From: a virus
Lineage: Duplodnaviria > Heunggongvirae > Uroviricota > Caudoviricetes
Virus record (IMG/VR): IMGVR_UViG_2695420540_000013
DNA: 10,060 bases
Strand: one strand, 5' to 3'
Under the pieces are notes generated by a model. It did not search any database, had not been told where the DNA came from, and saw nothing but the letters and a program-made list of their open reading frames with translations. Made by a program: the position numbers and the translations under genes. Positions 7,345 to 7,442 of the stretch are shown in pieces (the stretch's first letter is position 1; each line of letters opens with the position of its first letter).

Positions 7345-7442
7345 AGCTGCCTCGATACTCTCGTTATCGTTGGTGGTTAGACGCCCCGTATGTGTTTCCG
7401 GCACTGCGGGGCGTTGCTCTTTGTATTTCAACAATCCTTTCG

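Follow-up and report, generated by a model that had tools for sequence, protein, structure and literature searches.

A predicted cis-antisense RNA with its own terminator opposite the start of the Icd-like gene in a cf-PICI-like satellite of Escherichia coli

The leader of the replication operon in a phage satellite of E. coli contains a hairpin that is probably the Rho-independent terminator of a cis-antisense RNA of ~80 nt, which, to judge from sequence comparison, would be transcribed from the + strand (about 7345-7425) and block translation of the Icd-like ORF with which the operon starts. All positions refer to the window, i.e. the whole stretch of 10,060 nucleotides that was analysed (IMG/VR record IMGVR_UViG_2695420540_000013). 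The structure, its covariation, the strand on which it is formed, the U-tract, the -10 element in register with it, the antisense match to the site of translation initiation and the family to which the target ORF belongs are all observed by computation; from these we infer that the RNA is synthesised, that it pairs with the leader and that the pairing has an effect. A first-pass annotation of the same DNA had proposed that the hairpin could reflect attenuation or another RNA-based layer of control in the leader, by analogy with phage P4, and had remarked in addition that on the + strand it could terminate antisense transcription.

The element and its replication operon

The window represents a chromosomal phage satellite of E. 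coli: over positions 7100-7900 it shares 100% identity with E. coli SMS-3-5 and with many more strains. The genes encoding the integrase, AlpA, the primase and the capsid protein are all present (Table 1), and on the basis of those genes the satellite can be classed as cf-PICI-like, the int-alpA-primase-capsid layout being that of the capsid-forming PICIs (10.1101/2022.09.08.507074). The element is carried by ~30% of the complete E. coli genomes (1649/5426, O157:H7 and Nissle 1917 among them), with up to six copies per genome. Outside positions 7100-7900 the gene content differs from that of SMS-3-5, the window having the protease/capsid fusion and another integrase region. The segment 7100-7900 would thus constitute a regulatory module that is common to otherwise different satellites.

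Two further features of the element were recovered. Just 3' of the primase gene there is an AT-rich array (4533-4709) of direct and inverted GGTGAACAGT repeats, which is probably the iteron-type replication origin of the satellite. A strong terminator-like site on the + strand (8146-8165; GGCGACCGCCCCCGGTCGTC and then TTTGTTTTAT) is found 3' of the YlcI/YnfO-family gene and the 62-aa ORF, facing the 3' end of alpA.

Table 1. Position, strand and basis of the features discussed in the text
Feature	Position	Strand	Basis or remark
ClpP-like protease/major-capsid fusion	1180-3060	-	
Primase, D5/P4-type	4735-6540	-	
SSB		-	
DUF4222	6522-6821	-	
ORF, 106 aa, second in operon	6828-7148	-	8-nt overlap, at its ATG, with the 3' end of the Icd-like ORF
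Icd-like ORF, 67 aa, first gene of the operon	7141-7344	-	NF033153, RefSeq annotation
Candidate antisense promoter, extended -10 TGgTATGAT (hexamer 7332-7337)	7329-7337	+	conservation in 8 lineages
Whole antisense RNA (predicted)	7342-7427	+	delimited by covariance model
5' stem-loop domain	7344-7379	+	fold; 98.9% paired; directly upstream of the terminator hairpin
Hypervariable 7-nt apical loop, candidate recognition (kissing) loop	7358-7364	+	variant count
Putative terminator hairpin of the antisense RNA	7380-7415	+	fold, covariation, G·U counts; core stem 7381-7388 / 7407-7414
U-rich tail UUGCUCUUUGUAUUU after the stem	7414-7428	+	T counts across relatives
Palindromic operator region, core GTGTGTTTCATG / CATGAAACACAC at 7443-7475	7429-7489		overlaps the sense promoter
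Sense promoter of the Icd-like/primase operon	7452-7480	-	sigma-70-like
YlcI/YnfO-family gene	7542-7847	+	divergent from the Icd-like operon
ORF, 62 aa	7890-8078	+	
AlpA	8193-8489	-	
Integrase	8822-10060	-	

The first gene of the operon and its promoter

The Icd-like ORF scores 69.6 bits against the NCBIfam profile NF033153 (Icd-like; curated cut-off 25 bits), and the variation at third codon positions from codon 27 onward confirms that it codes for a protein. Its Shine-Dalgarno sequence, GAGG, occupies 7353-7350 and its AUG 7344-7342. The overlap of the second ORF with the Icd-like ORF suggests translational coupling.

The operon is preceded by a promoter with the -35 hexamer TTGACG (7480-7475), a spacer of 17 nt and the -10 hexamer TAACAT (7457-7452), so that transcription would start near 7445 and the leader runs from there to the ATG at 7344, as had been proposed in the first-pass annotation. 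Most relatives have a -35 of the form TTGAC or TTGAA at the corresponding place. If transcription starts near 7445, the complement of the antisense RNA would be contained in its entirety in the sense leader. Three copies of GTGTGTTTCA / TGAAACACAC, which lie within 7429-7489 and at 7511-7522 (the third copy), bracket the -35 and the start of this promoter and overlap the divergent YlcI/YnfO promoter. The relatives carry entirely different repeats at the operator places, which suggests that there are many repressor/operator specificities within the satellite family.

The nature of the target raises the question whether the same RNA could have as its main role that of the unstable antitoxin in a type I toxin-antitoxin pair, with a toxic Icd-like (Kil-like) protein, stabilising the island or aborting infection. 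The hok/sok pair has indeed a comparable layout, with an antisense RNA lying across the translation start of a small toxic ORF, the 67-aa target belongs to the Icd/Kil family, the name of which refers to inhibitors of cell division, and the Kil protein of P4 has been described as cell-killing (PMC10111431). The toxicity of the Icd-like protein itself is, however, predicted by way of its family, the ORF is not a stand-alone toxin gene but heads a long operon with overlapping stop and start codons, and its promoter would be controlled by a repressor via the operators, unlike the promoters of constitutive toxin mRNAs. We therefore regard a toxin-antitoxin role as unlikely and prefer the control of the replication operon as the function of the antisense RNA.

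The hairpin and the strand on which it would act

The two arms of the stem, ACGCCCCG (7381-7388) and CGGGGCGT (7407-7414), are separated by 18 nt and coincide exactly with the 8-bp stem that had been reported before. The reported loop of about 18 nt can be refined: on the + strand it closes further, down to a loop of 3 nt. When G·U pairs are included, the + strand fold comprises 16 bp between 7380 and 7415 (11 outer and 5 inner pairs with one unpaired base between them). The stretch 7344-7428 of the + strand folds with -37.1 kcal/mol (z = -5.1; 0/200 shuffles fold as well), and the stability ascribed to the hairpin by the first-pass annotation is thus beyond chance, as is its covariation (see below).

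We collected ~160 related loci from viral and metagenomic contigs via an alignment of Icd-like proteins and extracted their leaders; the pairs were counted in the alignment of the 61 distinct leader sequences. Within the hairpin, 9/13 pairs have changed on both sides while 95.5% of the cells are paired, and 0/500 shuffles reach either the observed covariation score or the observed percentage. The versions of the stem found among the relatives include: ACGCCCCG/CGGGGCGT, AAGCCCG/CGGGCTT, GAGGCTG/CAGCCTC and AAGCCCGG/CCGGGCTT. For the whole two-helix structure 97.2% of the cells are paired on the + strand, versus 35-54% when the 3' partners are slid.

The strand can be read from the imperfect positions of the stems, every one of which is G·U on the + strand of the window and hence A·C on the strand of the operon mRNA. 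The two helices together have 242 G·U cells on the + strand versus 2 on the sense strand, although these cell counts overstate the number of independent events because the relatives are closely related and mosaic. The terminator helix is 95.5% paired with 115 G·U on the + strand (81.0% with 0 G·U on the sense strand), the 5' helix 98.9% with 127 G·U (83.1% with 2 G·U), and the mean MFE over the 61 sequences is -36.8 kcal/mol for the + strand versus -23.7 kcal/mol for the sense strand. These data indicate that the structure is selected on the strand opposite to the operon, and such a covariation-backed structure on the antisense strand is in keeping with a cis-encoded antisense sRNA.

The sequence that follows the stem has the same polarity. 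In the 12 nt from the stem end, the mean number of T over the 61 relatives is 7.1 for the + strand, compared with 2.6 for the sense strand, and some relatives have clean T runs (e.g. UUGUUUUUUG and UUUGCUUUUUU). On the + strand the GC-rich stem-loop is directly followed by a U-rich tract, and a simple terminator scan flagged overlapping sites on this strand at 7396-7411 and 7408-7420. The same scan called no terminator-like site on the - strand at the hairpin, where the sense strand runs on as CUAACCACCAAC and an intrinsic terminator or attenuator is not recognisable. By its sequence, the pattern of stem and T-tract is the signature of a one-directional intrinsic terminator serving + strand transcription, and the earlier side remark on antisense termination has become the best-supported reading. 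The U-tract of the window (UUGCUCUUUGUAUUU) is interrupted, so termination may be partial.

It was initially proposed that the hairpin acts within the mRNA as an attenuator, and one could also think of a pause site, a stabiliser of the 5' end or the target of an RNA or protein that acts in trans. The hairpin does lie within the predicted leader, the 8-bp stem of the window is perfect on both strands, the sense leader folds with -26.4 kcal/mol, and the related systems of P4 and P1 do operate within a leader (PMC4825925, PMC10111431). The arguments against a function of this kind are the lack of a U-tract after the stem on the sense strand (2.6 versus 7.1 T), the A·C mismatches that the sense version has wherever the + strand of the relatives has G·U (81% paired with 0 G·U versus 95.5% with 115), and the z-score of the sense leader, which at -2.1 to -2.2 is far less exceptional than that of the + strand. 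Moreover, the window has no C4/CI RNA, and the proposed search for sequences complementary to the leader recovered neither a repeat nor a complement of it elsewhere in the window. A function in the mRNA is therefore improbable, although the site itself and the general idea of an RNA-based layer of control at the entry of the operon hold.

Likewise, a palindrome acting at the level of DNA, whether as a protein-binding site, an extra repressor operator half-site or a cruciform, is highly improbable. The apex of the hairpin in the window has an 8-nt match, GAAACACA, that is shared with the three operator copies; the stem, however, changes by compensatory substitution where a binding site would conserve its sequence, and the G·U asymmetry would be meaningless for duplex DNA. 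The apex was also evaluated as a fourth operator half-site over 62 distinct elements and rejected as such: the mean longest common word between apex and promoter was 5.73 for cognate and 5.90 for non-cognate combinations.

Finally, we give next to no credence to the hairpin as terminator of a + strand protein gene, the 77-aa ORF 7147-7380, which ends one base ahead of the hairpin and its T-tract but which has no family match, is a codon-for-codon mirror of the Icd-like ORF with its variation (from codon 27 on) at third positions of the latter and thus at first positions of its own, loses its stop codon in the relatives with CTGACC, and was consequently rejected as a mirror ORF.

The predicted antisense RNA and its candidate promoter

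A covariance model built from the type A sequences, the type found in E. coli SMS-3-5 and Nissle 1917, has a single match in the window (94.7 bits, E = 4e-25), the extent of which delimits the RNA (Table 1). Upstream of the putative terminator the predicted RNA contains a 5' domain with an outer helix (7344-7351 / 7372-7379) and an inner helix (7353-7357 / 7365-7369). It carries an anti-Shine-Dalgarno sequence, CCUC, at 7350-7353, opposite the GAGG of the Icd-like gene, and its 5' end abuts or covers the AUG at 7342-7344. The RNA therefore overlaps the translation start region of the gene on the opposite strand.

Diverged lineages were added by a pattern search with the conserved 3' arm of the 5' domain and comprised: type B (E. 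coli O157:H7 and others), four type C sequences and one type D sequence. In these types the 5' arms and the N-termini of the ORFs differ, yet the two-hairpin shape is kept, with the anti-Shine-Dalgarno sequence in the apical loop and the complement of the start codon inside the stem; the type B fold has z = -4.05, and scores of 61-76 bits against NF033153 were obtained for the ORFs of types B and C. The covariance model recovered one match per element in types B, C and D, always opposite the start of the Icd-like gene. Phage P4 and two chance matches of the pattern search yielded no match to the model.

The conserved block in the relatives begins at the hairpin and ends around codon 14 of the Icd-like gene, whereas the promoter/operator part is wholly different. 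A scan of genome contigs returned just one locus, from Edwardsiella. Its Icd-like protein is only 53% identical, and inspection of the alignment shows the leader and the first ~14 codons to be much more conserved than the remainder of the gene. A search of a phage database with the RNA region gave no match.

Since there is no + strand gene upstream, the RNA would need a dedicated promoter. The candidate extended -10 sits within codons 3-6 of the Icd-like ORF and predicts a start at A7343-A7345, at the base of the 5' stem. In 8 diverged lineages a TAnnnT hexamer, with T-12, A-11 and T-7 invariant, is found 7 nt upstream of a conserved A at the stem base, and in type B it is accompanied by a TTG-containing -35 at 17 nt. 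The consensus promoter scan did not call the antisense site, there being no recognisable -35 in the window, and the assignment of the promoter thus rests on the comparison with the relatives. The amino acids encoded opposite the -10 differ between the lineages, and codons 1-11 of type A show zero third-position variation yet several non-synonymous polymorphisms. Protein constraint may account for some of the conservation of the -10 in types A and B, given that it coincides with conserved codons (Asn-His).

A small GC hairpin (CCCGC-CCTT-GCGGG, 7311-7324) was also observed shortly before the antisense -10, in codons 7-11 of the Icd-like ORF. This hairpin coincides with the stretch that is free of third-position variation and could belong either to the promoter context or to the mRNA.

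Comparison with known RNA systems

The operon with the alpha primase gene in phage P4 has a leader that harbours the CI RNA (Rfam C4; 8420-8507) and seqA/isrK (8615-8692). The 65-aa ORF directly 3' of the CI RNA, which presumably has the position of kil, is a member of the Icd-like family as well (76.1 bits), so the analogy with P4 that was drawn in the first-pass annotation extends to the ORF behind the leader. In a BLASTP comparison the Icd-like protein showed no similarity to the legacy 'cI gene product' CDS of P4; the relationship emerged only from the score of the nested 65-aa ORF on the family profile. The RefSeq record of P4 contains a 137-aa CDS (8168-8584) over the CI RNA region, annotated as 'cI gene product / transcriptional repressor', and this annotation probably explains why PHROGs labels Icd-like families as 'transcriptional repressor'.

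In P4, transcription of the replication operon terminates prematurely when the CI RNA pairs (PMC4825925), and this is prevented if eta/kil is translated (PMC10111431). The C4/CI RNAs of P1, P7 and P4 occupy the same regulatory position as the RNA described here, namely the start region of an Icd/Kil-family ORF that heads an antirepressor or primase operon. They differ in being co-directional with their target, in being processed from the leader and in acting on short boxes (a1b1/seqA, seqC); the RNA in the window is encoded on the opposite strand, has its own predicted promoter and intrinsic terminator, and is complementary to its target over its full length. A co-directional RNA with separate complementary boxes is not found in the window. 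In a search against Rfam 15, there was no match to RF01695 (C4), RF03163 or isrK, neither for the whole window at E <= 1 nor for 7300-7560 (261 nt) at E <= 10. The same search recovered C4 at 72-75 bits in P4 and three relatives (gathering score of RF01695: 45 bits). The matches that did appear in the window were chance matches: miRNA models on the iteron palindromes (4522-4635), where the plant miRNA matches are spurious because of the GGTGAACAGT repeat array, and IMES-1 (E = 0.5). The window thus has the control point of P4 but a different, non-homologous RNA.

Both kinds of control can be encountered within a single operon. Three of the related elements (L012, L103 and L159) have, within 2235-2439 on the + strand, a true C4 RNA (RF01695, 72-73 bits) 3' of an Icd-like gene at 2001-2201, and L012 has the a1b1 target (RF03163) too. 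With the candidate antisense RNA in the leader, the first Icd-like gene, C4 and a second Icd-like ORF in succession, two RNA control layers appear to be stacked in these operons.

A further likeness is with CopA/CopT-tap-repA of plasmid R1 (IncFII), where a two-stem-loop RNA of ~90 nt is also cis-antisense to the leader of a replication gene. CopA blocks a short leader ORF (tap) on which repA depends, and differences in its loop define specificity groups. The differences are that R1 is a plasmid and not a phage satellite, that there is no sequence relationship, and that the leader ORF is here a conserved 67-aa Icd-like ORF rather than a peptide of 24 aa, with a coupling to the primase that is predicted from the gene arrangement. 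The sar RNA (P22 immI) and Sok (hok/sok) are likewise short cis-antisense RNAs over the ribosome binding site of an antirepressor or toxin leader gene of a mobile element, but their sequences, structures and target proteins are all different. The sar promoter depends on convergent transcription and Sok acts via mok and RNase III.

Proposed mechanism and its place in satellite biology

We propose the following course of events. A sigma-70 promoter with the extended -10 at 7329-7337 would drive + strand transcription from ~7343-7345, yielding an RNA that consists of the 5' stem-loop (7344-7379), the GC-rich hairpin (7380-7415) and a U-rich tail, and that would end ~20 nt short of the sense promoter. 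By construction such an RNA is perfectly complementary to the ~100-nt leader of the operon, between the start codon region and a point ~20 nt 3' of the sense transcription start; pairing would probably start loop to loop, and the resulting duplex would cover the stretch with the Shine-Dalgarno sequence and the AUG of the Icd-like ORF. If the first ORF is left untranslated, expression of the downstream genes, the primase included, should be lowered, as can be expected from the 8-nt overlap of the first ORFs and the tight packing of the genes; loss of translational coupling, Rho-dependent polarity or cleavage of the duplex are the likely routes. The outcome would be a second lock, at the level of RNA, on the replication module and on a potentially toxic protein, which strong sense transcription after induction may override. 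The logic of this mechanism is the same as that established for C4/icd/ant (P1) and CI/kil-eta/alpha (P4).

According to a survey, most of the P4-like and PICI satellites possess an Icd-like gene (PMC13612085), and the induction of Gram-negative PICIs and cf-PICIs has been explained through AlpA (10.1101/2022.09.08.507074). In the literature that we searched there was no report of an antisense RNA opposite Icd-like genes, of one in PICIs or of this small RNA in P4-like elements, nor was an RNA regulator described for PICI or cf-PICI satellites. The class of mechanism is classical; neither the RNA family nor the part it would play in satellites seems to have been described. What is predicted here is a structured antisense RNA where the replication operon begins, which would be a new candidate family for annotation in the manner of Rfam. 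The fact that the same position is controlled in P1 and P4 by a completely different RNA suggests that translation of an Icd/Kil-type first ORF is a general control point, for which two RNA solutions seem to have been reached independently.

Variation of the loop and its possible role in specificity

The 7-nt apical loop of the 5' domain occurs in 11 variants among the 61 sequences and is flanked by invariant helices. The terminator hairpin occurs in 23 sequence variants, and the two sets reassort: 51 combinations are found in the 61 sequences. In plasmid copy-control RNAs, loop changes in a cis-antisense pair keep self-recognition and alter cross-recognition. By analogy, a role of the variable loop as specificity determinant is plausible. 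A more far-reaching interpretation, to which we would attach only tentative value, is that the RNA constitutes a new satellite immunity family that replaces C4/CI and that the reassorting loop and terminator variants form a specificity code among PICI-type satellites. If such a code were real, the RNA variants would set which co-resident or incoming PICI-type satellites mutually repress their replication modules, which would amount to an RNA-based incompatibility or superinfection exclusion among satellites.

One viral contig (L188) carries two antisense RNA modules ~740 bp apart (11016-11093 and 11755-11840, both on the + strand). The second of these is of the further type (D) and faces a truncated Icd-like ORF, and the layout looks like a tandem or remnant satellite.
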